From Clostridia bacterium (lineage in GTDB: Bacteria > Bacillota > Clostridia > RUG12999), in the NCBI GenBank assembly GCA_022801925.1, contig JAAWTG010000003.1, positions 20,611-84,610 on the forward strand: a DNA stretch of 64,000 nucleotides, read 5' to 3'. Positions 5,915 through 59,046 of this stretch are shown piece by piece. Position 1 is the stretch's first letter; every line of letters begins with the position of its first letter. The translations under genes were made by a program, and so were the position numbers. The notes under the pieces were generated by a model. The model worked only from the letters and a program-made list of their open reading frames with translations. It searched no databases and was not told the DNA's origin.

Positions 5915-5958
5915 GAAAAAATGCACCGTTCTCTATTGAGAACGGTGCATTTTTGATA
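5915..5958. terminator. Bidirectional rho-independent terminator between the convergent kinase and ABC-transporter genes
   Basis: Perfect hairpin AAATGCACCGTTCTC/GAGAACGGTGCATTT with T-runs on both strands. Confidence 0.75.
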
Positions 5959-6016
5959 GAATTTATAACGAAAAATCTTCTTATAAGCCTATATAAAGTG
6001 GTCTAGAAAGTATGGG

Positions 6017-6170
6017 TAGGCAAACAAAAATCGAATATATTTGCGCCGTGCAGAGAAATTTTTTCGTAAATACGCACCCGTGAACTGTTTTCCATACAAC
6101 TTCGTAGCACACGTACCCTCTAGGGCACACGTACGCCCAGTATTGCAAAGGAACCTTTTCCTTGCCTTAC
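6017..6170. repeat. Copy A of a short intergenic repeat family (cores GACAAACAAAARTCGAAT, CCGTGCAGRGAAAWTTTTTTGTAA, TTGTAAGGCAAGGAAAAG)
   Basis: Shares 17-30-nt blocks with 41594-41660 and 47497-47680, found by direct comparison. Confidence 0.4.
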
Positions 6171-6889
6171 AAAATTTTACTCAAAAAAGATTTGGTGCGT
6201 TCGTTTTGCGGATGCGTGAAAATGTCGTCCGGCGAACCCTGTTCCACAATATTGCCTTCGTCCATAAACAGAACACGGCTTGCCACCTCGCGGGCAAATC
6301 CCATTTCGTGCGTTACAACGACCATTGTCATGCCTTCTGCTGCGAGCTGTTTCATAACAGACAACACTTCGCCGACCATTTCGGGGTCTAGCGCAGAAGT
6401 CGGTTCGTCAAACAACATAATTTCGGGATTCATTGCCAACGCCCGCGCAATACCCACGCGCTGCTGCTGACCACCGGAAAGCTGTTTTGGATAGGCATGG
6501 ATTTTATCGCCTAACCCCACGCGCTGTAGCAACTGGATTGCTTTTTGTTCTGCTTCCGTTTTGGGTAGCAGTTTTAATTTTGTCGGTGCAAGCGTCAGAT
6601 TTCTTAAAACAGTTAAATGGGGAAACAAATTGAAATGCTGAAACACCATTCCCATTTTCTGTCGGACATGATTGATGTTTATTTTGCGGTCGGTGATACA
6701 TTCGCCGTCTATGTATATTTTACCTTCGGAAGGGGTCTCAAGAAGATTCAAACAACGGAGAAATGTTGATTTTCCGGAACCGGAAGGACCAATCACAACC
6801 ACTTTTTCGCCTTGTTTGATGGTTTCGTTGATGCCGCGGAGGACATGGTTGTCGCCAAAACGTTTGTGTAGGTTTTCAACGGTTATCAC
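6167..6889 (-). CDS. Polar amino acid ABC transporter ATP-binding protein (GlnQ/ArtP-like)
   Basis: Walker [10 protein letters not shown], signature LSGGQQQRV, Walker [12 protein letters not shown]. Confidence 0.9.
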
Positions 6890-8436: not shown

Positions 8437-8858
8437 TGTTTTCCCCTCCAGTTCGTTTTCATTGTGGTGTACAGCGTTTCAATAAAACGCCGCTGTTTAT
8501 GCCGCTGCCGGCGAGGACAGCGGTTTGCATCGCCTTTCGCGGTTGCAACTGTATTTATTGTATCATGTCCGCGAAACGGACTAATATAGTGAAAGCACAT
8601 CGCCGGTTTCGAGCGAAGCAGTAAAACACTTTGGCGGCGCTTTCTAATTCATGAAATCTTCGGACACGTGCCGAAGATTTCATACCCTACAGCGTTCAGA
8701 GTGCCGCATCACGCGGCGCGATGCGCGAGCGCAGAACGCTGTTCAGGGGGATTCCGACAAGGGGGACGGTGTGACGGCGAGTAAAACGAGCCGGAAATAG
8801 TCCCCCTTTCGAGAAAACTCTGTATTTATTGTATCATAGAAAAATGAAAAAATCAATC
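8437..8858 (-). promoter_or_regulatory. 420-nt structured leader upstream of the amino-acid ABC transporter. It contains two copies of an 18-mer with an extended -10-like TGATACAAT, several GC-rich hairpins and a terminator-like element near the RBS. Class not identified.
   Basis: Direct repeat CATGATACAATAAATACAG at 8837-8818 and 8567-8550 (minus strand). 13-bp perfect hairpin at 8651-8683. GGGGGAC...GTCCCCC helix. CGCCG..CGGCG stem followed by TTTTATT about 40 nt before the RBS. Confidence 0.35.
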
Positions 8859-36622: not shown

Positions 36623-38527
36623 CTACTGCCTATGCTCTTTTAAAAATTTTTTCGCCTCCTTCAGCGGCAAAGCGCGGGAATAGTAAAATCCTTGAATGAG
36701 GTCGCAGTCGGTGCTTAGTACCATTTTATTATGTTCTTCCGTTTCGACACCCTCGCATAGAACGGTGATATTCATGCTGTGTGCCAAGCGAATAAGTCCG
36801 TCCAGCAACATTTTTCCGCGGCTGTCCATAGCGTTTAGAACAATGTCCCGTTCCACTTTCACGTAATCTATTGGATAATGATAGAGGTCAGATAGAGAGG
36901 AATAGCCGCTTCCGATATCATCCAAAGCGATTAGAAATCCAAGCGCCTTACATTTTTGCAGATTTTCCTGCAAAAGTTTCGGATTGTGTGACCGGGAATC
37001 TTCTGTAACCTCAATGATAAGGTGACTGTGGAGAAAAGCGTAACGTTCAGCAATTTCTTTGATATGGTTTGAAAAATCCGGTGCAGTAATGGAATAGCGG
37101 GTGAAATTACAGGATATAAACATATGACCCAAACCGTCCTGTTCCCATTTCGCCAGTTGTTTACATACCTGCGAAAAAATATAGTAATCGTGCGCTGTTA
37201 CAGCGCCGGTTTGGTTCATGAGTTCAATATATTTTGACGGCGGCAGCAATCCTTCTTGCGGATTTTGCCATCTGGATACCGCTTCTGCGCCGTATATTTC
37301 ACCTTTTCGGTTGACAATATATTGCAGATATAACTGAAATTCACCGTCCTTGATTGCCTGCGTGATACGGTGATGCAGGCGTTCATTCTGATGTGTTTCC
37401 GCGACGAGGGTTTGCGTGCTGAAAGAAAAGTTCAGTTTGTGACCCACTGCGTGGAGATATCCTTGTTTTGCGTTGTAGAAAGCGGATTCGCTGTCACAGT
37501 CCATGTTTTCTTCCAGCGCACAAACGCCGGCGGAAAAGAGATTCGTATATTCACTTTTGAATTGACTAAGATAGACGTCCAGTTCGTCCATGATACGCTT
37601 GATTCGTTCTTCTGCCTTTGGTTTATTGCTGCTTTGATAGAGAAAAGCAAACACGCCGGCATTTACCAATGCAAGATATTCTGCGGCGCCGGTTTTTTGA
37701 TTTAAAAATGCTGCCACATACTGCTGAACCGTTTGGGTTTCGCTTCCGCCGTACCGCCGGTTGAAGGTTTCTTCATCAAAGGAAATATAGGCAAGATAGT
37801 ATAGACTTTTGCTTTTATCGGAAATAAGATTGTCGTAGCAATAAATGTAATATTTATCATTTCCGATACCATATTGGGGATGTATCATCAGGTCGTCTTG
37901 CGCAGCTTTCCGCTTTCTCCCAAAATGGATTGCCAGCACCGTCGCTGTCAGCAAAACAACTGATAAAATACCACCTAAAACATATACAAACAATATATGG
38001 ATTCGGTTCACGCCGCCGTATTCCCTTGTATAGGACGAGAGAAACGTAAGTTTTTGTTCCGCAGATATCTCGGAAAACGCAGCGGAAACCTTTGATACGA
38101 TTTCTTCAGAGGCAATGTTAGAAAATGCAAAACAGACCCGCCGCTCTCTGCCGTCAATCGTAATGTTGGAAACGAACTGCGGCGTCTTTATATACTGCTC
38201 GTCAATCGCTTCCTCCAAATAGGCGGATATGATATCTGCCTGCCCGTTTTTTGCCAGACGCGCCTGTGCATGGGGACTGCTATCCTCCAAATACTGAAAA
38301 GTATAACCGGTTTTTTCAGAAATCACCGCATAAAGCTGCGGCATGAGACCGGCAAACTGTCCGCTCTTATCGTCATAATATTCTATCGGATACATATCGG
38401 TGTTTCCTGCCACATAAACGGTGGATTCTGAAGCAAACGAATGAACAGCAGCAAGAAACATAGAAAGCACGATAATACAGATATAGATACATATGGTTCT
38501 GACGAGCCCCATGTTACGGTTGTTCAT
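36623..38527 (-). CDS. Membrane-anchored sensor protein with a periplasmic domain, a degenerate GGDEF-like region and an EAL c-di-GMP phosphodiesterase domain
   Basis: C-terminal EAL motifs (LIALDDIGSGYSSL, DYVKVERDIV, QGFYYSRALP). Start chosen at MNNRNMG, which has a GGTGGA RBS. The longer ORF extension overlaps the upstream gene out of frame. Confidence 0.8.
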   Translation of the reverse strand: MNNRNMGLVRTICIYICIIVLSMFLAAVHSFASESTVYVAGNTDMYPIEYYDDKSGQFAGLMPQLYAVISEKTGYTFQYLEDSSPHAQARLAKNGQADIISAYLEEAIDEQYIKTPQFVSNITIDGRERRVCFAFSNIASEEIVSKVSAAFSEISAEQKLTFLSSYTREYGGVNRIHILFVYVLGGILSVVLLTATVLAIHFGRKRKAAQDDLMIHPQYGIGNDKYYIYCYDNLISDKSKSLYYLAYISFDEETFNRRYGGSETQTVQQYVAAFLNQKTGAAEYLALVNAGVFAFLYQSSNKPKAEERIKRIMDELDVYLSQFKSEYTNLFSAGVCALEENMDCDSESAFYNAKQGYLHAVGHKLNFSFSTQTLVAETHQNERLHHRITQAIKDGEFQLYLQYIVNRKGEIYGAEAVSRWQNPQEGLLPPSKYIELMNQTGAVTAHDYYIFSQVCKQLAKWEQDGLGHMFISCNFTRYSITAPDFSNHIKEIAERYAFLHSHLIIEVTEDSRSHNPKLLQENLQKCKALGFLIALDDIGSGYSSLSDLYHYPIDYVKVERDIVLNAMDSRGKMLLDGLIRLAHSMNITVLCEGVETEEHNKMVLSTDCDLIQGFYYSRALPLKEAKKFLKEHRQ

Positions 38528-39008
38528 TTTGACATCCACCCTTTTCAATCTTTTTTCGAGTGACCGGAGAAAAGTGTTGCGGTTCTGAAAGCACCTCACT
38601 TTTCTCAGACAAATTATCACCCAATATATCAAGTAATTGCTGAATGCTATCGCGTACATCATGGATACCGGCACTGCATTCACGGATTCGTTTTTGCAGT
38701 TCATGGGCGCATTCCAGATTTTTTTCCAGAAACTTTGCATTTTCAGCATTTGCTTTTTGCTTCAATTCTACTGCATACATTTTTGCATCGGTCAACACTT
38801 CCGCCACACGGTCGCGTTCTGCATAAAAAGCTGCGTTTTCCTGCTCAAGCCGTGCAATTTTTTTATTGAATTCCTGCACTGCCTGTTCGTGTGCTGTTAT
38901 GGTATCCATCATTTTCAGGGAAAATTTTTCGTTCATTTTTGCGATATATTCACATATATCGCTTTTTTTATATCCCCAAAATCCCTTTTTCAAACGTGTA
39001 ATATCCAT
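38514..39008 (-). CDS. DivIVA-domain coiled-coil protein (GpsB/DivIVA-like)
   Basis: N-terminal LKKGFWGYKKSDICEYIAKM matches the DivIVA N-terminal pattern (K.F..RGY...EV..FL..V), and the rest is coiled coil. RBS GGAAAGGAGA. Confidence 0.6.
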   Translation of the reverse strand: MDITRLKKGFWGYKKSDICEYIAKMNEKFSLKMMDTITAHEQAVQEFNKKIARLEQENAAFYAERDRVAEVLTDAKMYAVELKQKANAENAKFLEKNLECAHELQKRIRECSAGIHDVRDSIQQLLDILGDNLSEKSEVLSEPQHFSPVTRKKIEKGGCQNEQP

Positions 39009-39054
39009 AAAAATCTCCTTTCCGATTTTTCGGTATCATAGCCGGACACGCTTT

Positions 39055-40458
39055 TTAATGCAACTTGATTTTTTTGCGTTCAATACGACCCCATTGTGTT
39101 TTCTTTTTGCGATAGCCAATAAATGCGGTGGAGCGTACCCAAGCAAGGATAAACCGCAGACAGGTTAATTCAAAGAAACATAGTAAGACAGCCTTGACAC
39201 CGTCTATAAATGAAATTTTCATATCTGTTGTATAGAGGCGTGAGAAGAATGCCGAAAGCGAGAGGATGGAACTGAATCCGGCATATATCAGGAAAAACAG
39301 AATCATAAACGGAACATGCAATAAACCGGTTGCCCACGCCAAAAGCATAGTGATAACGCCAAATATTTCAATAAACGGTGAAAACAACTCATAAATCAAA
39401 AAGTATAAATAGGATATGAAACTGACTGCACCGAATTTGGGATTGGAAAACATTTTACGGTGCGCAAACATGCTTTGAAACAATCCCAAATGCCATCTTT
39501 TACGCTGGCGGCACAAATCACGCAAGTTTTCGGGTACTTGTGTCCAGCAGATGGCATCGCTGGCATATCGAATACTGTAGTTGATATGGTTCATGGTACA
39601 ATATTCATGCAACTTGACCACCAATTCCATATCCTCGCCGATTGTTTCATTGCTATAACCGCCCGCCGCTATGACTGTCTCTTTTTTGAACAGTCCGAAC
39701 GCACCGGAAATGATAAGAGAACCGTTGAATTTATCAAACAGAATTCTGGACGCCAAAAAAGAACGGGCATATTCTAAAACTTGCATACAAGCCAAGATAT
39801 TACGCGGCATACTATATTTTTTGAGCCGTCCGTTTTCCAGTTCGACTGCATTGGAAATGCGCACCATACCGCCGACGGCAACCACATTATCATTTTCCAG
39901 AACAGGTTGTGCAATGCGGCGCAGGGAGTCATATTGCAGAAAAGAATCGGCGTCAATACAAATAAAATACGGAAATGTGGAGGCATTAATACCCATATTC
40001 AGCGCGTCTGCTTTTCCGCCGTTTCGTTTACGAATGAGCGTCAGCGGTACCTTTTGCAAGCGGGACTCATAGACAAATTCTTCCGGCTGACAGGGAAGTT
40101 GCCGGCGTATCGGACAGTGAACGGGGCGCATGTCAAACGCTTCAATTAACTTTTTGGACATATTGTCTGTGGAACCGTCGTCTACTACAATAATCTCATA
40201 GGAGCGATATTCAAGCTGCAAAAGAGATTTGACGTTTTCCACCACAGTAATTTCTTCATTATAGGCAGGTACGATAATGGTAATCGGAACATAATAGTCC
40301 TGCGGGAGAATGTTTTTCATCAACTCACGCCGACGGAGTTTATACAGTTCAAGAGAGCCGACAACAAGCGAGATAAAAAGGAAGGTTGAATATCCAATGA
40401 GATAGGCGATAAAGAAATAGCCGGTCCAATCCAAGAATACTTTAAGCGTGTCTAACAT
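39055..40458 (-). CDS. Processive family-2 glycosyltransferase / polysaccharide synthase (PgaC/IcaA/NodC/HasA-like)
   Basis: N-terminal TM pair, DDGSTDN, DAD, QRKRW (QxxRW) motif, and 3-4 C-terminal TM helices. The start overlaps the upstream gene's stop (ATGTTAG). Confidence 0.85.
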   Translation of the reverse strand: MLDTLKVFLDWTGYFFIAYLIGYSTFLFISLVVGSLELYKLRRRELMKNILPQDYYVPITIIVPAYNEEITVVENVKSLLQLEYRSYEIIVVDDGSTDNMSKKLIEAFDMRPVHCPIRRQLPCQPEEFVYESRLQKVPLTLIRKRNGGKADALNMGINASTFPYFICIDADSFLQYDSLRRIAQPVLENDNVVAVGGMVRISNAVELENGRLKKYSMPRNILACMQVLEYARSFLASRILFDKFNGSLIISGAFGLFKKETVIAAGGYSNETIGEDMELVVKLHEYCTMNHINYSIRYASDAICWTQVPENLRDLCRQRKRWHLGLFQSMFAHRKMFSNPKFGAVSFISYLYFLIYELFSPFIEIFGVITMLLAWATGLLHVPFMILFFLIYAGFSSILSLSAFFSRLYTTDMKISFIDGVKAVLLCFFELTCLRFILAWVRSTAFIGYRKKKTQWGRIERKKIKLH

Positions 40459-41570
40459 ATGGATGCATCCTCCTTTTCTGCGCGTATCATATCACGAACA
40501 TCAAAATGGTACCGGAGAATTTCGGAGGCGTAGCGGTCATGTCCTTCCAAAACATCAATCAAATCCAGATAAGTCAATCCCAGCCGTTCAAGACTTTGCG
40601 CGGAATTGAACCGGATATGCCAGTTGCGGTGATGTAAATTTGATTTTAAAATTTCCACTGTTTTCTCTGCAGGGTAGGAAGCCAAAACAGAAGATGCTAT
40701 AGCGGCATATTCCCAGCGCATATCGGTTCTGCTGTTCGCATAAAGCAATAAATATTCATATGCCGGTTCATAGCGGTATTTACCGAAATAGCGAATACAG
40801 GCAAACCGGAGTTCATCGTCCTGCGATGTATCCTTCATAAGCCGCAGGATATCTTCGCAATGGTCTCCTGAGCTAAAGCGGAAATAGTTCAGCAGCGTGA
40901 TTTGCATCTTACGCGAGAAATCCTCAAATGTTTCCCAAAGTGCAGCGTTGAGTCGTTGCGTATTACCTGCGAAATTTAATAATCCATCCGCCAACAGTTT
41001 GCTATGATAGACTTTATTTTCATTGTCTATGATTTTTAATGCTTTTACAATGCAAGAAGCGTCTCTGGTAGTATAGAGCGCCTGCATAGCGTTTTCCCTG
41101 CAATAGATGCTCGGTTCATGGAGAAGCCGGAACAACATATCAATCATAGCGTCAAACGGACGGTCTGCCAAAATTCTATATTTTTTGATGATATATGGGA
41201 AATATGCCGCTTCCATAGAATCTTTTTTGCAATATTCGATAGAAAGAGATACAAACACACTGCCAATGGAATAGAGATATTTTCGGACAAGCATTGGATT
41301 TTCAAGATGTTTTTTTTCAAGCGCTGCATCAAAAGCACGCATGTTGCTGATGCGTTTGAGTTTTCCGGAAAGATAGTTTTTGTGTGCGCTGTGCACAGCA
41401 CTGTGCGTTTCCAGCCATATCAGTTCACTGCGGATCCTGTCCTCAAAACCATTGCTGACCCGAAGAATCCTTTTGTCCCTGCGGCGGGAGAGGAATGCAC
41501 TGATGATATTAAATAAAATCATGCCAACGCATATGACAAGATAGACATAAATCATTTTTTCTATGTTCAT
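40452..41570 (-). CDS. Hypothetical membrane-anchored alpha-helical repeat protein (HEAT/TPR-like), unknown function
   Basis: Single N-terminal TM helix followed by about 330 aa of predicted helical repeats. RBS GAAAGGG before MNIEKM. Translationally coupled to the GT2 gene. Confidence 0.5.
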   Translation of the reverse strand: MNIEKMIYVYLVICVGMILFNIISAFLSRRRDKRILRVSNGFEDRIRSELIWLETHSAVHSAHKNYLSGKLKRISNMRAFDAALEKKHLENPMLVRKYLYSIGSVFVSLSIEYCKKDSMEAAYFPYIIKKYRILADRPFDAMIDMLFRLLHEPSIYCRENAMQALYTTRDASCIVKALKIIDNENKVYHSKLLADGLLNFAGNTQRLNAALWETFEDFSRKMQITLLNYFRFSSGDHCEDILRLMKDTSQDDELRFACIRYFGKYRYEPAYEYLLLYANSRTDMRWEYAAIASSVLASYPAEKTVEILKSNLHHRNWHIRFNSAQSLERLGLTYLDLIDVLEGHDRYASEILRYHFDVRDMIRAEKEDASIC

Positions 41571-41593
41571 TGTGAGAACCCTTTCTTTTGGTG

Positions 41594-41660
41594 AGACAAA
41601 CAAAAGTCGAATCTCATGCGGTCACTGCATGGCGCAACCATATTCGACTTTCGTTTGCCT
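41594..41660 (-). repeat. Intra-operon hairpin / short repeat copy (AAAGTCGAAT...ATTCGACTTT followed by a T-rich run), between the glycoside-hydrolase and helical-repeat genes
   Basis: 10-bp stem with a nested CATGC..GCATG stem. On the minus strand it is followed by TTTTGTTTGTCTC. The 27-nt 3' half recurs at 47497-47525 and a variant at 6017-6037. Confidence 0.45.
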
Positions 41661-41672
41661 ATCCGCGTACTG

Positions 41673-43844
41673 CTATGACCATAATTGTTGCAGCATATAA
41701 TAGGAACTTTTCAGGCGTTCATGATAGCTTATCTGGTTGCCCCAGCCTTTCAGTTTGAAAGAGGAGAACGGTATCCGACCGCCGGAATTACCATCTGTCA
41801 GTGCGAAATACAGTTCATTGATTTTGATATAGTCTATACCGTAGTTGCCGCTGTAATAATCATCATGAATCATCATACGAGACGGATCGGAGAAATTCAA
41901 AAGCTGCCACGGCAGTTTCAGTTCAATATAGTCTCCACTGCAGATATAGTCGGCGAGAGAGTCAAACGCCGGACTAGACGGATTGGCGTTGCCATATTTG
42001 AGTTTTCCGGTCTCAAAGACCTCTGAGTTTGCCAAATTATCGTTATAGAGAAGTACCGTAGCGGTTTGCAGAATCATCTGAATCGGCAGGAAACGTGGCG
42101 AGTCAATATCAGGTATGTTGCTTGCGATATAAGTATCAAAATCATAAGCTTGCAGTGCATAGGTTGAACGCAGCGATTCATAACGTTCCTGCACCAAAAC
42201 ACGGCTGTTTTCTCTGCCGTGCAGCACAATTAAAAAATCTGCTGCACGGTCTAATAAAAGATTTTGTTCCTTGCAATAAAGGCTGCCGCTTTTGGGCGTG
42301 ATATCCAAAGGAATATAAAGCGTATCGGTTTCGAGGTTGAGGTTCGGTTTGTGAATCAGGAAATAGAGGAACCGCTCATCATATTTTACAGAAAGGGACA
42401 TGCCGCCGTTTTGGACGACCAAATCCGATTCTGTCCATTCAGAAATATCTCCGTCCACATAGCAAACAGATTTTTCGGCGCCAGGGTCAAAGGATAATAA
42501 GCCAAAATATTGCTCGTTGGTCTGATAGTCCGACCAATAGGGCGTTCTTGTCAAATCCACTGCATACATCGTATTCCAGGTGCGTTTGAACCATTCATCC
42601 TGCCACGAAAATACACAGCAGCCGGCACAACCTGCCGCCATAATATCCTCATAACAGTCGATAAGCGCTTGACCCTGTTCCTGTTCGGACATGTTGCCCT
42701 GATTTCTTCCGGTGTTTGCATCCCTTTGCGCCATTCCGCGTCCGGTGGAAACGCCGAACTCCGAAATAACCACGGGCATGGTATGATGGGTTGTGAGCAT
42801 GGCAAGATAGGCGCGGTAGGTGCTGAGTTGCCCTTTTGCATTGATATATGCCGATTTATCTGCGATTCCAAACGGTGACCAATCGTCAATATAGGTGAGG
42901 TAGTCGGGATAATAGGGATATACATGGTAGGAGGCAAATTGTCCGGCAAGAAATGTGTCATAGGTTTTAATATGTTCCGCATTCACATAGGCACATTTCA
43001 TAAAGAAATTTTTGATTCGTTCAGGATATTCAAAAGGATCAGTGGTCGGCCAGTTGGAAAAGGCAATGAGTTTTTGCGTTTTATAGCGGCAAGATTCATA
43101 TTCAACCACTTTGTCGCCGACTTTACAAAGCAGCGTTTCAAAGGGAGAGGCGTCCTGCGTGGTATACATATATTTCCCTTGATAAGAGGTATAACCGTCT
43201 TTGCCCGCGTAAAGATCGTCTGTATAAGCAACCGTAAGGTCTTCCCACTCCACGCCCAAAATATAACCGATGACCCAAGAAGAGACGTCTTTTAGATAAC
43301 TGCCGGAACCGGCGCTTGATACACTATTCAGCGCAATTTTTTTATTGCCGTGTACGGCATCCAGCATAGTTTTGCAATCATTTAAAAAAGTATCATAAAA
43401 TTCCTTACTATAGGCATCGCGGTGGGAATTTTGTATGTAGTCGTTGACCCATACGCCGTGAATCAAATAGAGTGGGTCAGGATTGTTTTTATTATATTCG
43501 TAAAACGCCTTGTAAAAAACGTCCTGTTGAATGGTATAGATACGAATCGTGTTGGCGCCCATTTCTTTGATATATTGAAACCAGCGAAGATAGGTTTCTT
43601 TGTCGATTGCAAAATCGGTAGACCATGCGCCCGGCGCGCCGGAGCCAAGATTCACACCACGAATCTCAAAGGGTTCATACCCGTTTCCCTTGTCCATATA
43701 TATTTTATCGCCATCTGTTTTGACAAAGGTGGTAACTGCTTTGGCAGGCTGAAAATCAATATACCATCCGAGCCGGAAATAAATGGCGTCATAGACCAGA
43801 GCCAATGCTACAACAGATGACAAAATGATTAAAAACTTTTTCAT
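41673..43844 (-). CDS. Secreted glycoside hydrolase-like protein (TIM-barrel clan GH-A type, candidate exopolysaccharide hydrolase)
   Basis: Signal/anchor sequence, GVNLG...IKEMGANTIRIY, and a candidate nucleophile motif VVISEFG. 723 aa. Confidence 0.5.
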   Translation of the reverse strand: MKKFLIILSSVVALALVYDAIYFRLGWYIDFQPAKAVTTFVKTDGDKIYMDKGNGYEPFEIRGVNLGSGAPGAWSTDFAIDKETYLRWFQYIKEMGANTIRIYTIQQDVFYKAFYEYNKNNPDPLYLIHGVWVNDYIQNSHRDAYSKEFYDTFLNDCKTMLDAVHGNKKIALNSVSSAGSGSYLKDVSSWVIGYILGVEWEDLTVAYTDDLYAGKDGYTSYQGKYMYTTQDASPFETLLCKVGDKVVEYESCRYKTQKLIAFSNWPTTDPFEYPERIKNFFMKCAYVNAEHIKTYDTFLAGQFASYHVYPYYPDYLTYIDDWSPFGIADKSAYINAKGQLSTYRAYLAMLTTHHTMPVVISEFGVSTGRGMAQRDANTGRNQGNMSEQEQGQALIDCYEDIMAAGCAGCCVFSWQDEWFKRTWNTMYAVDLTRTPYWSDYQTNEQYFGLLSFDPGAEKSVCYVDGDISEWTESDLVVQNGGMSLSVKYDERFLYFLIHKPNLNLETDTLYIPLDITPKSGSLYCKEQNLLLDRAADFLIVLHGRENSRVLVQERYESLRSTYALQAYDFDTYIASNIPDIDSPRFLPIQMILQTATVLLYNDNLANSEVFETGKLKYGNANPSSPAFDSLADYICSGDYIELKLPWQLLNFSDPSRMMIHDDYYSGNYGIDYIKINELYFALTDGNSGGRIPFSSFKLKGWGNQISYHERLKSSYYMLQQLWS

Positions 43845-43865
43845 GAATCCTCCTAATGAAACTAC

Positions 43866-45341
43866 TTAGTTTGCGTTTTCGTTAAACTTTTTCACCTTTG
43901 ACCCAGCGGAATATTGCGTGATAGATTCTATGTTTTCATCCAGCCAGGAGCCTCTATACGAAATAAACCACTTGAGCTGCGCAAGACTTTCTTCATAGGA
44001 ACGTGGATTGCGTTCGATAGGTTTTAGCAAATCATGACTTTCTTCAAAGGAATACCCCCATTTTTCATAGTTTCGCGCTATCGCGGCACCTAAATACTCT
44101 ACAGTGCTGTCAATATAACGGCAAAGATAGTCCTCGCTGAGATAGGTTTGACGAAGTTCATGATAACGCTTGACACAACGTTTTGTAAAGTTTTCATCTT
44201 TTGTCAGCATAAAGTACCACAAACAATTTTGAAGTTCAAAATGTCCGGGCTGCATCATAGATTGCTGATAGTTGTCACAGGCAGAGTTAAAATCCCAAAT
44301 ACACATGCGGAACTTGCCGTCGATATCTTTATACATATAAGTGGATAACCAGCCGGCGTCGTAGTTACAGGTAAACTCATTTATGAGAAGATAGTCTACA
44401 AAAGAATCTACATCAATCAATTTTTCATACCCATATTGGTTATTGTCGTAATCATAGGAATAGAGTGATTTTTCAAAAGCGGAAAAATCTTGTTTGATTC
44501 CTTCCAATATTTTGGGCGTTAGATTGGGAGCGCCGGGATATACAATTTCCAATTTCAGATTTGTGCGGAGCGTATAGGTGGTAAAACTTTTCAGATGGTT
44601 CTGTTCCTCGTTGTCCGGACGGTCAAGTAACAATACATAGCCGGTAAAGGTATTATCTTTTGCATCGACAGTCAGATTTAGGCGACTTCCGTTTTTGCCT
44701 GCCGTAATGTTTTCAACCAATACATAAACGCCCATATATTCACCATCAAGGAGCAATTCACAAAAGCGTACATTGGGAGCGTAGTCCATAATCTCGCCGG
44801 CAATATTATACCACATATAATTACGAAGCAGTGTCTTGTCCAAAATCGGACCGTGCAGCACCCATTCATGATGGGCGGTCATTCCGATTAGACTTTGTGG
44901 ATTGTTTCCTCCTTTTTCATCAATCAGATTGATGCGATAGCCCAATTTATCATAGGTACGCGAGGAATTGCCGCGTACATGAATGGATATATCGCTGGTA
45001 ACAGCAGGAACATCAGTGGGATGGTTGTTGGTTGTTTTATTATCAAACACCGACAGCTTGGCACGGATTCGGTCGCTACCGTCAGCCGCGGTTGTATATC
45101 CGGTCGTTTTACCTTCTTCCACGATTGCCCTTCCGGGTATTTCCACACCGCCTGTATGAATGGTTATCAACGGTAAATGTGTGCAGAAGGTATTGTCCGT
45201 ATGGGGGCATGGTTGTTTCGGCTCTGCCTCCAAATGTTGATGATAGCGTCCGGTATCCGCAGTCAATAAAAGAGGCAAATTTATCGCAGAAATGAGCAGC
45301 ATGAGTGCACAGGCAATGATACCCCAAACTTTGTATTTCAT
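43866..45341 (-). CDS. CotH-family protein (atypical kinase fold), secreted or membrane-anchored
   Basis: N-terminal hydrophobic segment. 491 aa with CotH-like conserved blocks (RGNSSRTYDKLGYRINL, HEWVLHGP, YVLVENI). Sits in a CotH-DUF4956-VTC context. Confidence 0.6.
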   Translation of the reverse strand: MKYKVWGIIACALMLLISAINLPLLLTADTGRYHQHLEAEPKQPCPHTDNTFCTHLPLITIHTGGVEIPGRAIVEEGKTTGYTTAADGSDRIRAKLSVFDNKTTNNHPTDVPAVTSDISIHVRGNSSRTYDKLGYRINLIDEKGGNNPQSLIGMTAHHEWVLHGPILDKTLLRNYMWYNIAGEIMDYAPNVRFCELLLDGEYMGVYVLVENITAGKNGSRLNLTVDAKDNTFTGYVLLLDRPDNEEQNHLKSFTTYTLRTNLKLEIVYPGAPNLTPKILEGIKQDFSAFEKSLYSYDYDNNQYGYEKLIDVDSFVDYLLINEFTCNYDAGWLSTYMYKDIDGKFRMCIWDFNSACDNYQQSMMQPGHFELQNCLWYFMLTKDENFTKRCVKRYHELRQTYLSEDYLCRYIDSTVEYLGAAIARNYEKWGYSFEESHDLLKPIERNPRSYEESLAQLKWFISYRGSWLDENIESITQYSAGSKVKKFNENAN

Positions 45342-45375
45342 CTATTTACCTCCTGCATTGTTTTTTGAACATGGT

Positions 45376-46053
45376 TTAATTTGACACTTCATCGTTTTGC
45401 ATGACGATGTTTACATATTCGACATTTCCAAGCGCGTAGATACCGGCGGTGATATCGGGCGTTTGTTTTTCCGCTTTTTGCAGCATTTTTTGTGTTAGTT
45501 CGTAGATAAGTTCCACGGTGTCTTCTGTCGTGTTTTCCACGCGGAGAACCGCCTTTGTATGGAATATCTTATAGATTTGCGCTTTAATAGGCGCCTGTTT
45601 ACTACGCGCGGCACGCACGATAAGCAGCATTCTATGGTCGTTTTTAATGAAGCCAAGTACTAGAATCACAAAAAAGGTAACTGCACTTCCAATACCTGCC
45701 ACAAGATAATCGCCTACACCACAGCAGATACCGACAATGATAGTCCAAAAAATGTATACCGTATCCCGCGAATCTTTAATAGCAGTACGGAACCGGACAA
45801 TGGACAGCGCGCCAACCATTCCGAGCGACAATGCAATATTGTTGCCGATGACTGTCATAACAGTGCTTGTCAGCACTGTTAGAATCGTGAGAGAAGCATT
45901 AAATTTTTTACTATAGATAGTGCCGCGGTGAGATATGTAGTAGGAAATGAAGATAAACAATCCAAGTGCCGCCGCCGTCGCAATATTCATTAGAATTTGT
46001 TCAGCAGTCATGTCGCTGGGATTGGTAAATAGGTTATATATTTTTTCTTTCAT
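45376..46053 (-). CDS. DUF4956-family membrane protein
   Basis: Four TM helices followed by a soluble C-terminal domain. Typical genomic partner of VTC-domain and CotH proteins. Confidence 0.6.
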   Translation of the reverse strand: MKEKIYNLFTNPSDMTAEQILMNIATAAALGLFIFISYYISHRGTIYSKKFNASLTILTVLTSTVMTVIGNNIALSLGMVGALSIVRFRTAIKDSRDTVYIFWTIIVGICCGVGDYLVAGIGSAVTFFVILVLGFIKNDHRMLLIVRAARSKQAPIKAQIYKIFHTKAVLRVENTTEDTVELIYELTQKMLQKAEKQTPDITAGIYALGNVEYVNIVMQNDEVSN

Positions 46054-46067
46054 ATATTGATAACTCC

Positions 46068-46775
46068 TTATAATCTCGTTTGATACCCATTTTGGCGGGC
46101 AAGCACATATTTACTGACAGATAATTCGCTACGGTTCACGCTGTTTATCATACGGCGGATATAATCGAGCAGAAAGCCGTTGAATTTCACTTCCATAACC
46201 ACGTTAAATTTGTCCAGCACCGGATTCATATTAAGATATGGCGCAAACAAATCAAAATTGCTTTCCGTAGCCACAATATTGCTGTCAAAAGTAATACGGA
46301 TTTTATTCTCCTTTGCAATGAATGCTTTGCGGTGATATTGTACGATTGTTTTAGGACGGTAACAGCGAGTATTCATGAGCGCATAACATTCGGCTGCAAA
46401 GCGCTCTTTGTAATGCAGAAGAGGGGAATAATCGCCTTTGGTAAGCGCTATGGCTTCTTCACGCGATATCTGCAAAGAACGCTTAAGTTGATACGCACCT
46501 TGTTTTTGTTTCATCTCAAGCATAGCAAAATGAGAATTTGAGTCATAAATACGCAGCCTGATTTTGCGCCTTGTTTCTATGCCGGAAATCTTTTCAAAAT
46601 AGTCTCTGTCATATATTGTATCAAAATATAGTGAGCGAATCACATATCCATGCGTTCCATTATGTATATCTTCTGACATTACTTGGCTTAACATGTGGCT
46701 CTTTTCGAGAAATTCATCAACGTTTATTAAGAACTTTTTTTCTTCTCTGAAAACTTTGTTCAATCCTACCATCAT
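46068..46775 (-). CDS. VTC-domain protein (polyphosphate-polymerase-like triphosphate tunnel fold)
   Basis: SLYFDT motif and about 235 aa, matching bacterial VTC-domain proteins. First gene after the riboswitch leader. The RBS AGAAGG abuts ATGATG, so the exact start is uncertain. Confidence 0.6.
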   Translation of the reverse strand: MMVGLNKVFREEKKFLINVDEFLEKSHMLSQVMSEDIHNGTHGYVIRSLYFDTIYDRDYFEKISGIETRRKIRLRIYDSNSHFAMLEMKQKQGAYQLKRSLQISREEAIALTKGDYSPLLHYKERFAAECYALMNTRCYRPKTIVQYHRKAFIAKENKIRITFDSNIVATESNFDLFAPYLNMNPVLDKFNVVMEVKFNGFLLDYIRRMINSVNRSELSVSKYVLARQNGYQTRL

Positions 46776-46781
46776 CCTTCT

Positions 46782-46822
46782 AAAAACAAAAAAACTGACT
46801 GCAATTTAAACTTGCAGTCAGT
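46782..46822 (-). terminator. Intrinsic terminator forming the expression platform of the leader riboswitch
   Basis: Perfect 11-bp stem ACTGACTGCAA/TTGCAGTCAGT with a 7-nt loop, followed by TTTTTTTGTTTTT, ending 6 nt before the RBS. Confidence 0.8.
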
Positions 46823-46829
46823 CAATCAT

Positions 46830-46898
46830 TCGAATTTATTCGGTTAGACACTTAACTTTGCGTCCCCGCTTTTCAACAGGTTTGCCTAATATTCATTT
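46830..46898 (-). promoter_or_regulatory. Candidate c-di-GMP-I (GEMM) riboswitch aptamer
   Basis: Minus strand reads ...TTAGGCAAACC TGTTGAAAAGCG GGGACGCAAAG TTAAGTGTCTAACC... This reproduces the GEMM-I conserved blocks GGCAAACC, a 12-nt hairpin with a GAAA tetraloop, and GGGACGCAAAG, with the same 12-nt spacing as the Vibrio cholerae Vc2 aptamer. Confidence 0.55.
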
Positions 46899-47040: not shown

Positions 47041-47090
47041 TTTTAAAAGCAAAATAAACCCCCTGCAACCACTATGGTTACAGGGGGTTT
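47041..47090 (-). terminator. Rho-independent terminator downstream of tRNA-fMet
   Basis: AAACCCCCTG...CAGGGGGTTT 10-bp stem followed by ATTTTGCTTTT on the minus strand. Confidence 0.8.
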
Positions 47091-47418: not shown

Positions 47419-47458
47419 TTCTACTCTCCAAAAGGCATAGATGCCTTTTGGAGAGTAG
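47419..47458. repeat. Perfect 18-bp inverted repeat CTACTCTCCAAAAGGCAT-AG-ATGCCTTTTGGAGAGTAG
   Basis: Read directly. No adjacent U-run on either strand, so it is not an obvious terminator. Confidence 0.5.
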
Positions 47459-47496
47459 GAATCGGAAAAAGTTTTGTATAGCATATATCTAGGTTA

Positions 47497-47680
47497 GACA
47501 AACAAAAGTCGAATCTCATGCGGCCTCCCAGAAGCAGATTTTTCCGTATGCTGTGCTAGAAATACCCCACATACACTAGTATTTCTGCGTATTTTTTCCT
47601 TGCCTACAGAAAATTTGCACCTAGAGACTTCATAGAACCGTGCAGGAGAAAATTTTTTGTAAGGCAAGGAAAAGCCTTTT
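47497..47680. repeat. Copy B of the short intergenic repeat family. It includes an internal 15-bp inverted repeat TTTTCCTTGCCTACA / TGTAAGGCAAGGAAAA.
   Basis: Shares GACAAACAAAAGTCGAATCTCATGCGG with 41594-41622, and shares CCGTGCAG..AAATTTTTTGTAA / TTGTAAGGCAAGGAAAAG with 6046-6170. Confidence 0.4.
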
Positions 47681-47826
47681 TTGCCTAGGAAAAGCTGATA
47701 TTGCACATTTGGCAATATCAAATATTGAGGATGAGGCGCAAATATTGTAGATTAGTGAAATGGTAGAAAAAATGAGGGTTTCGGAGGGGTGCGCAAAAAA
47801 TGTATATCAAACGTAAATATGGCTTC

Positions 47827-54066: not shown

Positions 54067-57000
54067 ATGAAATATAGAAAAAAACTGTCATGGACCCTAT
54101 TAACCGGACTAATCGTTTCCCTTTTTGCAGGAATTGTACCGGCAGCGGCGGAAATGACACCGGCGCAGACAGCGGCTTATTATAGCTATACCATTGGAAA
54201 TTTTGTAGAGGGGTATGAGGGCTATGCCTATGAAAAAGAGGCGGATTTTGCGTCTCTTGACGACCTTAAAGCATTCCCGGCAATTGCCGCAGGGTCGGGG
54301 AATACATGGGACGGTGTGAGTGTTGTGAATGGCAAACCTGTCATGAGCAAGGCAAACGACGTCATTGATTTTCTGTTCCCGACATATGATGACAACGAAA
54401 TCGAAAAACCAACAGCGCAAAAATCCTATGCACTGTTTCGCTATTCTTTGAGCGCAACAGATGCAAATTTTCAAAGTTCACCGGGGCAGACAGCGCGGCA
54501 CCAAAACGGGAAAATGGAGTTCAACCAAAAAGGCGCAAGCGGAGCTGTGTGGACGCAAGTAACGGATGATATTCAAAAGTTTGCCGCAAATGATATTCTT
54601 ACGATTAAAACCTTCCAGGATGCAACACGGCAAAACACTGCGAAATTGTTAGAATATACGACTTGGGTAAACAATGAAACGAAAAACACAGGATTTGTAA
54701 AACAATTGGAAAATGTAAATCCACAAGCATCTGCCAGCAATCAAAATATTAAAAATTATAATGCGAAAGTGCTGAGCGGCAATGCTGCAAATATTACCAT
54801 TTATGGCTGGGCAAGCTATGAACAGTATGAATATTTGCTGCGGGAAACCATTCGCAGCGTGGAAACAGAATTGCTGGGGAGCAATCGGTCTTTACAAAAT
54901 GTGACAAGTAATTTGAAATTGCCACAGGATTTAGCATTAAATTTAGATAAAGGCCATGTCGGCAGCGTAAAATGGACGTCCAGCAACGAAGAAATTGTAA
55001 ATTCCCAAACAGGTGTAGTAACACGTTCTAAATCAGGAGATCAGAAAGTGACATTGACGGCGGTGTATACTGTCAGCGGCGCGGAAGGAGAAAAAACGAA
55101 AACCATTGCATATCCTATCACTGTTCCGACATCTGCGGCAATGACGCCGGAGGAAGCATTTTATTACCGGTACACCATGGGAAAAATGATAGACGGCTAC
55201 AATGGTTATGCTTATGAAAATGATTTGAATTTTGCATCACTGGAAGAATTGAAAAAAGCGGATAATATTGATGTGAGAAGTGATGCGGGAATGTCCGTTG
55301 GGGACGGAAAAGCAAAATTCGGAAAAGGTGCAGGAGAGGTTAGTTTTATATATCCGGATAAAGATATCATGGGCAATGATAAACCGGTGAACGGAAAAAT
55401 GTATAGTGAAACGGCTTTTTCAGTCAGCCCCAAATCCACATTTTTGAATATGTCTTCCGGAGCAGGAGTAAAGACCGAAGGTTCTAAAATCAAACTGAGC
55501 TATAGAACCGAGGCGAATGGTGAAGCATTTCAGGAGGCAACGGCTGATATTCAAAATTTTGCAGCAAACGATATTCTGCGGTATAAGTTTTATTTAGATG
55601 CAACACGGAAAGAAGACCCCAATGGGTTGCTGAGTTACACGACATGGATAGAAAACAGCACGAAAAATACCGGTTGGATATTGCAAAAAGAAAATTATAA
55701 CCCCAGATGGGGTTCCACCAATACAAGCCTTGTAGAGATAACGTTTAAAACAGCTGCCTATAATAATGGAGTTGGAACAGCGCATTCGGTATCGGCATAT
55801 GAACGGTTTGAATATTTGCTGCGCGATTTGGTGAAGCAGGCAGAGAAAGATATGCTGCAAGGAAATGCAGCGCTAAGCCGCGTGGAAACAGATTTGCGTT
55901 TGCAAAGCGGCGAGGTAACATTGGATAAGGGATGCAAAGGAACTGTAACATGGGAATCCACCGATGCAGGTGTAATCAACCCGCAAACCGGAAAGGTGGA
56001 ACGTTCCACAACAGAGGATAAATATGTCACCTTGACTGCTACTTACAGTGTGGCAGATGAAAAAGGCGAAACAAAAGAAAAAGTAATTGCATATGAAATT
56101 TTTGTTCCGATGAATGCACCGCTTCGTAAGCTGGCAGATCGGTTTACATGGGATGTCATCAGCAATACGCAGACGGCAGACAGCGTTCGGGGAGACTTGA
56201 ATTTGGTCAAGACATATGCGCATGAAAGCGTACCGGACTGTACTGCGGCGGTGAGCTGGACAGTGCTCAGCGGCGGAGAAGCGGTGAATACGGAAACGGG
56301 AGAAATCACACGCCAAGAGACAGGCGACGTCAAGGTAGAACTTGAGGCAACGCTCAAAGATGGCGATGCAGAAGTGAAAATCGTATTTCCGTTTACGGTA
56401 CCGCGCTACATCTCTCCACAGGAGGAGGCAGATGCGGTTGCGCAGAATTTGACATGGGAATCTATCAGTACAGAGGCGCAAAACAGTGTAACGAAAAAAC
56501 TAACGCTGCCAGGCACAATGGCAACGATAGATAACAATACAGCGCAAATTACATGGAATGTATCGGCGGGCAGTGCGGCAGCGACAGCGGATGGAACGGT
56601 TACGCCGCAAAGCACAGATACGCTTGTCGTATTGGAAGCGGTTGTTTCCTGTGGTGGAGCGCAGACGAAAAAAGAGTTTCAATTTGTTGTTTTGGCAGTC
56701 AATCAAGATTTAGAGCATTTTCATGTTAATTTTAAGGCAGAAGGAGATAAGACATTGGCAGATTCTTCTTATGCACAGACAATGAAAACCGGAACAACGG
56801 GTGCGGTGGAAGAAGGATATTCTGCACAGTTTGTAGATGGTAAAGGATTGCAATTGCAATCGGCGGGAGCAAATGCAGACACCGATAAATTCATGCTACA
56901 CTGGAATATGCTGCCTTCCGCAGCGGAACCGGCGGCAATGGAAAATCTGAAAACAACTTCAACTATCTATGAAGTGACGATGTATGTGATTGGCAAAGAC

Positions 57001-59046
57001 AAGGCGAATGTGCGTGTGACGTTGGTGGATGCACAGAACAGAAATGCCATTCTGTTTACAGCCAGAAATGATATTGTTGGTTTGCAGGCAGGAAATAAAT
57101 GGAATGCTGAAGGAAGAGCGCCGTGGGGCGATACAGATGTTTATCCCACGCTTTTTGATGGGGAAACTGGACCGCGCGTTACATTCCGGGCCGAATACAA
57201 TCATATGACGGGCAAATTGAATGCCTATGTGAAGTTGGCAGATTACACAGGACCGGAGAATTACGGTGAATATTATCAGATAGCAACCGATGTTGCGCCA
57301 AACAATGCTGCTGTAACAGGCGTTCTTTCCGGTATGGAAATTGATTCCTGCGGTACGAACAACGCCGTGATAGAAAGTGTCCGCTGTTATACCACTTCCC
57401 ATGCGGTGAAAGAAGCGACTTCCGGAATCGTGGAAGCATTGGAGTATATGAACGGACAAAACGAGAAATTTGTAGTGGGAAATCTGGAATTTCCGCAAGT
57501 CATTGACCAATATGGTGCTTCCATTTCATGGAAAAGCAAACCGCAAGGATATTTTGACGAAAGAGGGAATTTGCTTTCCCGTCCGGCAGCATATGAAACA
57601 GTGGATGTTGCTATCACACCGGTTGTAACATTTGCAAATGCGGCGTGGGCGTCTGCGGCGCCGGCATTTCCTGCAAAAACGGTGACGGTAGTTGGTGTGA
57701 ACGATGAAAATGCTGCGCTGAACAAAAAAGTGAGTGTTTCGGGAGCAAAAGCGGCAGAAGGCAGCCGTGCAGATTACATCACGGACGGCAGTCTTGAACG
57801 TGGATTTTCGACTGACGGAACAGAAAAACGCTTTGATGTAATCGTTGATATGGGTGATGCAGCATGGAATAAACTGAAAATTACCGAGGGTGAAGCCTAT
57901 AACGTGGCATCTTATGAAATCAGTGTGTCGGAGGACAGAAGAAATTGGAGGGCAGTTCAAACCGGTACAACGCTGCAACTGAAAGAGGCAACCTTAGCGG
58001 GAGACGAAGGCAGCCGGTATGTGCGGCTTTCTGTTCAGGGGAAAACGTTTGAAAGTCTGCCGGTACATATCAAGGAGATTGAAGCATTTTTTGAACCGTC
58101 TGATGATTATCGTGCAAAAGCAGACTTAGAACGGGTGACACTTCCGACAGGAATGGTGAAACAAAACTTTGTTGTTCCGGCAAAAGGTGCTGTCTATGGA
58201 AGCGAATTTGCTTGGACATCAAGCCGCAGCGATATTTTATCGATTGCAGCGGCGCCGTCTGGTGAGGGATATTTGGTAACAGTAACGCAGCCGGAACGCA
58301 ACACACCTGTTACGTTGACTTTAAAAACAGGAAATATTACGAAGCAGTATCAAGTAACAGTGCAAGGTAAAACGTATGGCGGCGGCGGCATAGGTGGCGG
58401 TGCAGGAAGCGGCTCCGGCGGCGGAAACAAAGTATCCGGCGGTTCGAGCAGTACAATTCCGTATCTTCCGACAGAAGCAAACCGAAGTGAAAACATTCAG
58501 CTGACAGGATATTTTCCCGATGTAACGGGATGGGCGGAAAGCTATATCAACAGACTTTATGAACATAAGGTTGTCAGCGGAGATGCGCAGGGCTATTTTC
58601 ATCCGGATGCAGGGGTATCGCGCAGCGAATATATCAAAATGCTGACCTTGACATTGGGTATTGCGCCGGATACACAAACGGAACTTCCGTTTACAGATGT
58701 TTCGGAAGAACACTGGGCGCGTCCGTATATTGCAGCGGCGTATAAGCTGGGCATTATCAGCGGTATTTCTGAAACGGAATTCGGCGTTGACCGGGCGATT
58801 TCACGCCAAGATTTGGCGGTGATGACAAATCGCGCACTGGAAAAAATGGGACGGCAAATGCAGCAGGTGACAGAAAAAACAGAATTTACCGATGCGGCTG
58901 CAATTGCGCCATATGCGGCACAAAGTGTGGAAACTATGCAGCAGTATGGTATCATAAACGGTATGCCGGACGGCGGCTTCCATCCGCTGGAATGTGCAAC
59001 GCGCGGCGAAAGTGCAAAAATTCTGTGCGGCGTTCTGCCAAACTAG
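54067..59046 (+). CDS. Giant (about 1660 aa) surface protein. It has repeated N-terminal domains, Ig-like/Big domains, a candidate discoidin (F5/8 type C)-like domain, a Gly-rich linker, and C-terminal triple SLH domains.
   Basis: Signal peptide. Two internal repeats of about 310 aa (MTPAQTAAYYSYTIGNFVEGYEGYAYEKE / MTPEEAFYYRYTMGKMIDGYNGYAYEND). C-terminal SLH repeats (YFPDVTGWAESYINRLYEHKVVSG, FTDVSEEHWARPYIAAAYKLGIISG). Confidence 0.7.
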   Translation: MKYRKKLSWTLLTGLIVSLFAGIVPAAAEMTPAQTAAYYSYTIGNFVEGYEGYAYEKEADFASLDDLKAFPAIAAGSGNTWDGVSVVNGKPVMSKANDVIDFLFPTYDDNEIEKPTAQKSYALFRYSLSATDANFQSSPGQTARHQNGKMEFNQKGASGAVWTQVTDDIQKFAANDILTIKTFQDATRQNTAKLLEYTTWVNNETKNTGFVKQLENVNPQASASNQNIKNYNAKVLSGNAANITIYGWASYEQYEYLLRETIRSVETELLGSNRSLQNVTSNLKLPQDLALNLDKGHVGSVKWTSSNEEIVNSQTGVVTRSKSGDQKVTLTAVYTVSGAEGEKTKTIAYPITVPTSAAMTPEEAFYYRYTMGKMIDGYNGYAYENDLNFASLEELKKADNIDVRSDAGMSVGDGKAKFGKGAGEVSFIYPDKDIMGNDKPVNGKMYSETAFSVSPKSTFLNMSSGAGVKTEGSKIKLSYRTEANGEAFQEATADIQNFAANDILRYKFYLDATRKEDPNGLLSYTTWIENSTKNTGWILQKENYNPRWGSTNTSLVEITFKTAAYNNGVGTAHSVSAYERFEYLLRDLVKQAEKDMLQGNAALSRVETDLRLQSGEVTLDKGCKGTVTWESTDAGVINPQTGKVERSTTEDKYVTLTATYSVADEKGETKEKVIAYEIFVPMNAPLRKLADRFTWDVISNTQTADSVRGDLNLVKTYAHESVPDCTAAVSWTVLSGGEAVNTETGEITRQETGDVKVELEATLKDGDAEVKIVFPFTVPRYISPQEEADAVAQNLTWESISTEAQNSVTKKLTLPGTMATIDNNTAQITWNVSAGSAAATADGTVTPQSTDTLVVLEAVVSCGGAQTKKEFQFVVLAVNQDLEHFHVNFKAEGDKTLADSSYAQTMKTGTTGAVEEGYSAQFVDGKGLQLQSAGANADTDKFMLHWNMLPSAAEPAAMENLKTTSTIYEVTMYVIGKDKANVRVTLVDAQNRNAILFTARNDIVGLQAGNKWNAEGRAPWGDTDVYPTLFDGETGPRVTFRAEYNHMTGKLNAYVKLADYTGPENYGEYYQIATDVAPNNAAVTGVLSGMEIDSCGTNNAVIESVRCYTTSHAVKEATSGIVEALEYMNGQNEKFVVGNLEFPQVIDQYGASISWKSKPQGYFDERGNLLSRPAAYETVDVAITPVVTFANAAWASAAPAFPAKTVTVVGVNDENAALNKKVSVSGAKAAEGSRADYITDGSLERGFSTDGTEKRFDVIVDMGDAAWNKLKITEGEAYNVASYEISVSEDRRNWRAVQTGTTLQLKEATLAGDEGSRYVRLSVQGKTFESLPVHIKEIEAFFEPSDDYRAKADLERVTLPTGMVKQNFVVPAKGAVYGSEFAWTSSRSDILSIAAAPSGEGYLVTVTQPERNTPVTLTLKTGNITKQYQVTVQGKTYGGGGIGGGAGSGSGGGNKVSGGSSSTIPYLPTEANRSENIQLTGYFPDVTGWAESYINRLYEHKVVSGDAQGYFHPDAGVSRSEYIKMLTLTLGIAPDTQTELPFTDVSEEHWARPYIAAAYKLGIISGISETEFGVDRAISRQDLAVMTNRALEKMGRQMQQVTEKTEFTDAAAIAPYAAQSVETMQQYGIINGMPDGGFHPLECATRGESAKILCGVLPN

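Follow-up and report, generated by a model that had tools for sequence, protein, structure and literature searches.

Three intergenic repeats in an uncultured gut Clostridia lineage are very probably decayed copies of one recently mobile MITE family

MITEs are short non-coding DNA transposons that keep only the ends a transposase needs. The Correia elements of Neisseria (CREE or NEMIS) are ~100–300 bp long and non-coding, with terminal inverted repeats (TIRs) of ~20–26 bp and flanking TA dinucleotides; they occur in many intergenic copies with internally deleted subtypes, form long hairpins if transcribed and can create promoters at their ends, and we know of no cognate transposase for them in the host. 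RUP of Streptococcus pneumoniae is a TIR element of ~107 bp whose movement, with duplication of TA, is attributed to an IS630-family transposase, integration at TA with TA duplication being characteristic of the IS630/Tc1-mariner enzymes. The BOX repeats of the same species are built from modular A, B and C boxes in mosaic copies. REP/BIME sequences are imperfect palindromes of 20–40 nt with a GTAG or GGAG head and are associated with a RAYT (Y1) transposase. Here we describe a family of dispersed repeats whose closest known forms appear to be RUP and the Correia elements.

The window analysed is a stretch of 64,000 nucleotides from contig JAAWTG010000003.1 of a Clostridia bacterium, with a G+C content of 45.6% and a high coding density. 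An earlier note on this DNA had described short strings shared by three unrelated intergenic regions. All of these were present where it had placed them. The 28-mer AGACAAACAAAAGTCGAATCTCATGCGG occurs exactly at 41594–41621 and 47496–47523, with no occurrence expected by chance (100 shuffles) and an E value of 9e-11 when the three regions were compared with the window by sensitive word-7 blastn. In the same sensitive comparison with the window, the 20-nt string TTTTGTAAGGCAAGGAAAAG at 47655–47674 matched 6155–6174 exactly in inverted orientation (E = 1e-5). A third match, overlooked by the note, aligns the reverse complement of 41625–41661 with 6017–6053 (86% over 37 nt; blastn); since the right arm of the 41.6-kb copy thus matches 6017–6053 inverted, that copy is a two-ended palindromic unit. 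A repeat search across the window grouped 6014–6045, 41590–41621 and 47492–47523 into one direct-repeat family and paired 6145–6174 with 47655–47684 as an inverted repeat of 30 nt (87%). Chance similarity of the three sites is excluded by the 28-, 20- and 37-nt matches, which go far beyond what chance would produce. With the flanking TA included, the corrected boundaries are 6017–6169 (copy A), 41593–41661 (copy B) and 47495–47687 (copy C). Each copy lies outside or between genes, as the note had held. We consider it highly likely that A, B and C are decayed copies of a single MITE family that was recently mobile in an uncultured gut Clostridia lineage.

We took a census of copies by scanning a genome collection (one genome per species, 1.2e12 bases) with the query AGRCAAACRAAARTCGAAT. 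Sixty-three stretches matched, 32 of them, with 35 exact TIR matches, in the MAG CAMNSU01 (SRR19792995_bin.74). Two further stretches came from CATIYX01 and one from CBCTHD01, both Clostridia MAGs, and all three carry further family sequence. The other 28 were single matches in unrelated phyla, a number in keeping with the ~35 chance matches estimated for this query. The window itself matches Logan contigs of SRR11195286 at 100% identity and the MAG GCA_949742335.1 at 99.6–99.9%, and it is syntenic, at ~96% nucleotide identity, with NODE_271 (101.5 kb) of ERZ12290371, the assembly behind CAMNSU01. We therefore place CAMNSU01 in the same species as the window organism or in a sister species, and its census can fairly stand in for one of the window genome. 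In independent Logan assemblies of the window species, contigs have one of their ends within A, B or C, and four contigs, drawn from at least four samples, break off at one and the same position 29 nt into A; contig breaks of this kind are the signature expected of sequences that are repeated in those genomes.

The earlier note had reckoned with chance similarity should a wider search return only fragments and no extended alignable element. We found instead a full form of ~277–315 bp in two related MAGs belonging to two species. The full-length copies, L005:1377–1656 (280 bp), L018:7356–7670 (315 bp) and, from a different MAG, L038:2064–2341 (277 bp), align end to end and share the same non-coding interior. 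Alignment of copies, which the note had proposed as a way to look for terminal inverted repeats, revealed 20-bp TIRs at both ends of all three: the element starts with TAGGCAAACAAAAGTCGAAT and ends in the reverse complement, ATTCGACTTTTGTTTGCCTA. Between the TIRs lie two separate hairpin modules of ~110 nt. Folded as single-stranded DNA, L005 has a predicted energy of −77 kcal/mol, compared with −28.8 ± 3.7 for shuffled sequences (z = −13), and forms a 20-bp terminal stem of paired TIRs around the two ~110-nt hairpins. The interior holds further TIR-like sites (TATGCAAAGGAAC, TAAGGCAAGGAAAAG and TGTAGGCAAGGAAAAA), and sites of the form TA(A)GGCAA(A/G)(C/G)AAAA number five per element, an arrangement that recalls how eukaryotic Tc1-type IR/DR elements carry inner and outer binding sites. 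Open reading frames across the copies are read-throughs of flanking or disrupted genes only, and there is no transposase gene.

The left boundary of the element is sharp. Sequence before (T)AGGCAAAC is unrelated between copies and sequence after it falls into few recurring classes, with T preceding AGGC in nearly all copies. Twenty of the 35 TIR matches lie wholly between long open reading frames, in loci whose coding fraction, roughly gauged from ORFs, is 62–100%. Minis of only 27–32 nt, such as TAGGCAAACAAAAGTCGAATCTTATGCCTA and TAGGCAAACAAAAGTCGAATATGCCTA, occupy more than half of the TIR-bearing loci in CAMNSU01. Each consists of the first 24–27 nt of one arm and the last 3–6 nt of the other end, joined at a TGC common to both, and the join point is the base of the internal hairpins. 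The alternative strings CTTATG and CTCATG do not mark a separate mini lineage, as the long copy L107 also has CTTATG. Two CAMNSU01 contigs share, in addition, a 277-nt repeat with 96% identity (L018:5861–6137 and L033:5507–5783) that is weakly similar to the centre of the element profile and may be another derivative or a third family.

Copies that are short, abundant, extragenic and hairpin-forming, some of them clustered (adjacent or in tandem at L016 and L033), are also what would be seen if extragenic palindromes were spread by a RAYT enzyme acting on single-stranded hairpins rather than as a TIR transposon, and the minis, with their TAGGCA...TGCCTA ends, fall in the REP size range. The earlier note had named REP-like and MITE-like elements together. 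However, the unit here is a non-palindromic 20-nt end, inverted at both ends of a 277–315-bp element (20-bp TIRs around a body of ~277 bp), and not a simple palindrome of 20–40 nt. The minis pair only 5–6 nt at their ends, there is no conserved GTAG or GGAG head (the base before TAGGC varies, with G in 8 of the 35 CAMNSU01 matches), and full-length copies enter coding sequence as a unit, as in the toxN gene described below. We therefore find a REP/BIME-type origin scarcely credible. It was the MITE half of the suggestion that the data bore out, with an extended element bounded by 20-bp TIRs, dozens of copies in the relative and three pairs of filled and empty sites.

We placed the window copies on a profile built from L005, L018 and L038. 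Copy A (6017–6169, plus strand; 153 bp) has a 149-bp body at 6019–6167, between TA at 6017–6018 and TA at 6168–6169, and represents the left module of the full form (profile positions 1–126, matched by 6017–6177; nhmmer E = 2e-27). It carries a 37-nt internal block common to L018, L025 and L044, and it aligns end to end with L018:7356–7512, L025:2467–2623 and L044:9–165 (83–87%, blastn). Its outer TIR, of the alpha type (6019–6036, plus strand; GGCAAACAAAAATCGAAT), has one mismatch to the TIR consensus; its inner, TIR-like end (6152–6169, plus strand) reads CCTTTTCCTTGCCT followed by TA, or TA-AGGCAAGGAAAAGG in reverse complement. Copy A lies between two convergent genes, for a hybrid histidine kinase (3318–5861) and an amino-acid ABC ATPase (6167–6889, minus strand), and the TTA at 6167–6169 of its inner end is the TAA stop codon of the ATPase gene.

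Copy B (41593–41661, minus strand) is a 69-bp internal-deletion derivative matching profile positions 1–39 and 247–278 (nhmmer); the terminal regions alone are kept, and they form a 19-bp stem. It lies within an operon, between the stop of a GH-like gene (41673) and the ATG of a HEAT-repeat gene (41568–41570), and the genes around it (41673–43844 and 40452–41570) run co-directionally on the minus strand. This minus-strand operon (genes 36623–46775) is headed by a c-di-GMP-I riboswitch at 46810–46896 (minus strand, 71 bits), and it encodes VTC-domain, DUF4956, CotH, GH-like, HEAT-repeat and GT2 glycosyltransferase proteins and, after them, an EAL protein.

Copy C (47495–47687, minus strand) is a 193-bp derivative that matches profile positions 72–279 on the minus strand (nhmmer E = 3.6e-50) and comprises the right TIR and the hairpin-2 module in reverse orientation. 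About 13 nt of the left TIR remain (TAGGCAAAAAAGG, 47675–47687), fused to the element centre, and TA flanks the copy at 47495–47496 and 47686–47687. It aligns with L005:1465–1657, L018:7480–7670 and L038:2067–2241 at 84–86% (blastn). The 15-bp internal inverted repeat that the earlier note had seen lies in this copy, at 47594–47608 and 47659–47674 (TTTTCCTTGCCTACA and TGTAAGGCAAGGAAAA; 12 nt exact in inverted orientation by blastn); the two arms are internal TIR-like sites of the form TA(A)GGCAAGGAAAA and are paired in the predicted fold of C (z = −3.15). Copy C shares a 1.1-kb gap with tRNA-Leu, tRNA-Met and the c-di-GMP-I riboswitch. Adjoining it at 47420–47462 is a near-perfect palindrome without a T tail, CTACTCTCCAAAAGGCATAGATGCCTTTTGGAGAGTAG, which is missing in the relative L089 together with ~65 nt of flank and most of the element. 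Because A, B and C map to different parts of one profile, we conclude that they represent one element in three states of internal deletion. The mosaic arrangement noticed earlier is thus a real pattern, and its cause is internal deletion of one longer master element.

Comparison with relatives identified filled and empty sites. The gap between the ATPase and kinase genes measures 305 nt in the window and 145 nt in L115, L116 and L118, which are ~96% identical to it and lack A. The empty site reads AAAATTTTG-TA-ATCATATTG, whereas the filled site, on the reverse strand of the window, reads AAAATTTTG-TA-[AGGCAAGG...149 bp...GTTTGCC]-TA-CCCATACTTTC. The junction falls exactly at the TAA stop of the ABC ATPase, and the stop is regenerated. 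Copy A is absent, too, where the ATPase is 93% and 90% identical. To the right of A, 45–59 nt are far more diverged than the ~4% background, and the flank TTACAAAATTTT is similar to what follows in the element immediately beyond the point where A ends. On this sequence comparison, A may be a full-length insertion that was later trimmed between short direct repeats, or else a self-sufficient half unit. At the site of B, the intergenic gap is 15 nt in L084, L085 and L087, where the HEAT protein is 85% identical, versus 102 nt in the window and L089.

The third case is an insertion into a gene. In CAMNSU01, the full-length copy L005 interrupts a toxN/abiQ gene (Pfam PF13958) and leaves halves of 85 and 82 residues. 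An intact orthologue (P0241; L123, 95% identical) reads AGATTTA|ACTATATG at this point, and the filled site in L005 reads AGGTTTA|GGCAAAC...GTTTGCCT|ACTACATG, with the same junction in the independent assembly L105. The gene belongs to a type III toxin–antitoxin locus (L005:1130–1913 in CAMNSU010000023.1; L123:2834–3507 in JGI 3300006217). Upstream of the intact toxN in L123 is a 36-nt tandem repeat of 2.8 copies, a unit size that we take to be the one expected for a ToxI antitoxin RNA.

These sites bear on whether the repeats could be leftovers of complete IS elements, that is, solo TIRs and end-to-end scars of deleted elements whose short form does not transpose. Many copies are solo or two-ended stubs, and one locus holds different deletion products in two lineages, as such leftovers would. 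Against this, the three ~277–315-bp copies, from two species, have the same non-coding interior throughout; one full-length copy is a recent insertion into toxN; the 149-bp unit is a lineage-specific insertion at A; and no relative of IS length occurs in the family loci examined. An origin as IS leftovers is thus highly improbable, and the common short interior, the insertions at toxN and A and the lack of an IS-length relative indicate that the short form itself moves. Of six properties by which we judged MITE character, four are present: small size without a transposase gene, TIRs, many dispersed copies and insertion polymorphism; the other two, an exact target-site duplication and a cognate autonomous IS, are taken up below.

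TA is found on both flanks of nearly all copies, and in both clean empty sites TA, within TAA, lies exactly at the junction (TG-TA-AT and TT-TA-AC). This is compatible with integration that is specific for TA and duplicates it, the mode of IS630/Tc1-mariner elements, with deviations: the filled toxN site is one A shorter than a strict TA duplication predicts, one flank of copy B is TC rather than TA, and the right flank of A is diverged as described above. Duplication of a 3-bp TNA or of TTAA is contradicted by the flanks.

Copies at orthologous positions differ in what is left of them. At the C locus, L089 retains only a 38-nt remnant of the left end, TTGGTAAAATGGAGTCGAATATGCTTGCGCCGTGCA, whereas the window retains ~13 nt of the left TIR fused to profile positions ~115–279. 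The different remnants represent two independent deletions of one ancestral insertion at C, and L089 cannot be counted as an empty site there, since it holds a remnant of a shared old insertion. In genomes that are ~85% identical, orthologous sites hold a full-length element (L038) and a 27-nt mini (L099); L056, with a long arm, and L096, with a 30-nt mini, have a common right flank at 98.9% identity. Of 70 positions in copy B, 6 differ between L089 and the window (background ~3–4%), without any compensatory change, and the stem is predicted to be weaker in L089 (−24.7 kcal/mol) than in the window (−30.9 kcal/mol).

This pattern of decay matters for the view that the repeats are functional RNA or regulatory modules (small RNAs, mRNA stabilizers, attenuators or terminators) that selection maintains, and not selfish DNA. 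In favour of that view are the strong predicted hairpins (z = −13 for the full-length element; z = −5.2 for B, folded on the mRNA-sense strand), the position of many copies 10–30 nt upstream of ribosome-binding sites or just past stop codons, and the location of B in an operon headed by a c-di-GMP-I riboswitch. However, the stem of B has decayed between ~96%-identical lineages by changes that do not compensate one another, the fold of A is not significant (z = −0.3), copies occur in both orientations and one sits inside a gene, and sites are empty in relatives. Searches for signals were equally negative. Rfam 15 gave no match to A, B or C at gathering score, and e-value scans of L005 and the C region returned only sub-threshold hairpin noise of the eukaryotic miRNA-precursor type, so the small-RNA reading offered in the earlier note finds no backing there. 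A consensus scan detected no sigma-70-like promoter inside A, B or C. The terminator reading fared no better: A and B contain no T-tailed hairpin, C has one weak 5-bp candidate (47661–47678), and the real terminators, at 5917–5954 and 47056–47090, lie outside the elements. Selected RNA modules are therefore a very unlikely explanation for the family.

We searched for a transposase that could move the MITE family. No autonomous element with these TIRs was present in the ~0.5 Mb of family loci examined, and inverted TIR pairs at IS-size spacing (up to 4 mismatches) were found in these loci only at L035. There, the 2.2-kb TIR-bounded segment encodes an Rrf2-like regulator and an amidohydrolase-like protein and its TIRs belong to separate stubs; it was rejected as an autonomous element. 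The family loci hold no multi-copy long or coding repeat that could be an IS. A metagenome scan yielded no IS-sized relative, only further copies of the short element, mainly from the same species; no match to the element was found in plasmids and phages (distant blastn) or in viral contigs (scan); and a literature search with the TIR string found no paper. Since MAGs often lose IS contigs, the failure to find a transposase is weak evidence.

The family is probably moved in trans by a TA-targeting transposase, although none was found here. Such an enzyme, encoded in the genome and behaving like the IS630/Tc1-mariner type, would bind the TIRs, cut and paste copies in trans and integrate them at TA. 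Long palindromic copies would lose their interior after insertion, by hairpin-promoted slippage or because gap repair is interrupted, in either case at short homologies such as TGC, and the products would be two-ended stubs, of which B in the window and the 27–32-nt minis in the relative would be examples. The minis are too small to transpose by the usual two-ended route, and the junctions that recur among them could reflect repeated deletion in situ or some other way of spreading. Effects on the host would be incidental: B sets a hairpin into an operon, the stop codon hit by A is regenerated, toxN is broken in the relative, and metagenome assemblies break. We hold it to be unlikely that the family goes beyond this, with a TA-targeting transposase new to gut Clostridia and an unusual multi-site architecture, with minis that are themselves still substrates, or with copies such as B co-opted as signals for RNA processing or stability. 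Minis that still moved would rank among the smallest mobile DNAs known.

The window contains other repeats. A second, unrelated dispersed repeat lies at 8549–8837, where a strongly folding, GC-rich segment of 253 bp (8567–8819; z = −6.95 for the DNA fold) lies between two identical direct copies of an 18-mer, CTGTATTTATTGTATCAT (8549–8566 and 8820–8837). The ~96%-identical relative L115 has a single 18-mer CTGTATTTATTGTATCAT and no 253-bp insert. For a MITE, a duplication of 18 bp is exceptionally long. Within the 18-mer is an extended −10-like sequence, TGATACAAT, which lies upstream of the amino-acid ABC operon. The CAMNSU01 loci L001, L024, L025, L034 and L044 hold partial copies with 72–88% identity, and Rfam gave no match. 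Elsewhere, a gene of 1,667 amino acids has internal repeats (54561–54845 and 55539–55826) with a period of ~980 nt and, in related contigs, a gene for an SLH-domain protein just upstream of it, and two giant genes share a 54-nt motif near their ends (58590–59024 and 62851–62904). The repeats of the 1,667-residue gene and the motif of the giant genes are ordinary domain repeats.

Like Correia elements, this family combines small size, TIRs and TA flanks with intergenic copies, deletion subtypes and hairpins. It differs from them in its Clostridia host, its two internal hairpins, its several internal TIR-like sites and the negative result of the scan for promoter-like sites; the comparison is one of descriptions, and we know of no sequence relationship between the two. 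RUP and BOX are, as here, intergenic repeats of Firmicutes, RUP sharing the TIRs and TA and BOX the mosaic look. Unlike BOX, whose boxes are shuffled independently, the mosaic described here stems from deletions of one master, and unlike RUP, the family has no IS630-like partner that we could find and differs in sequence and host clade. The family also fits MITEs in general as described for Coxiella burnetii (PMC5896051): its copies are short, have TIRs, carry no transposase reading frame and have inserted at new sites. What differs is that it comes from uncultured Clostridia and that no parent IS was found. We regard it as a new MITE family.

The finding opens no new class of biology and is conceptually modest; its value is practical. 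The element accounts for intergenic sequence left unannotated in this lineage and for the breaks of short-read assemblies and MAGs at fixed points, and the presence or absence of its copies provides markers that separate lineages ~96% identical to one another. It also records recent transposition with consequences, in a split toxN, an insertion at a stop codon and a strong hairpin in an exopolysaccharide-type operon, and it implies present or recent activity, in uncultured gut Clostridia, of a transposase that recognizes these TIRs.
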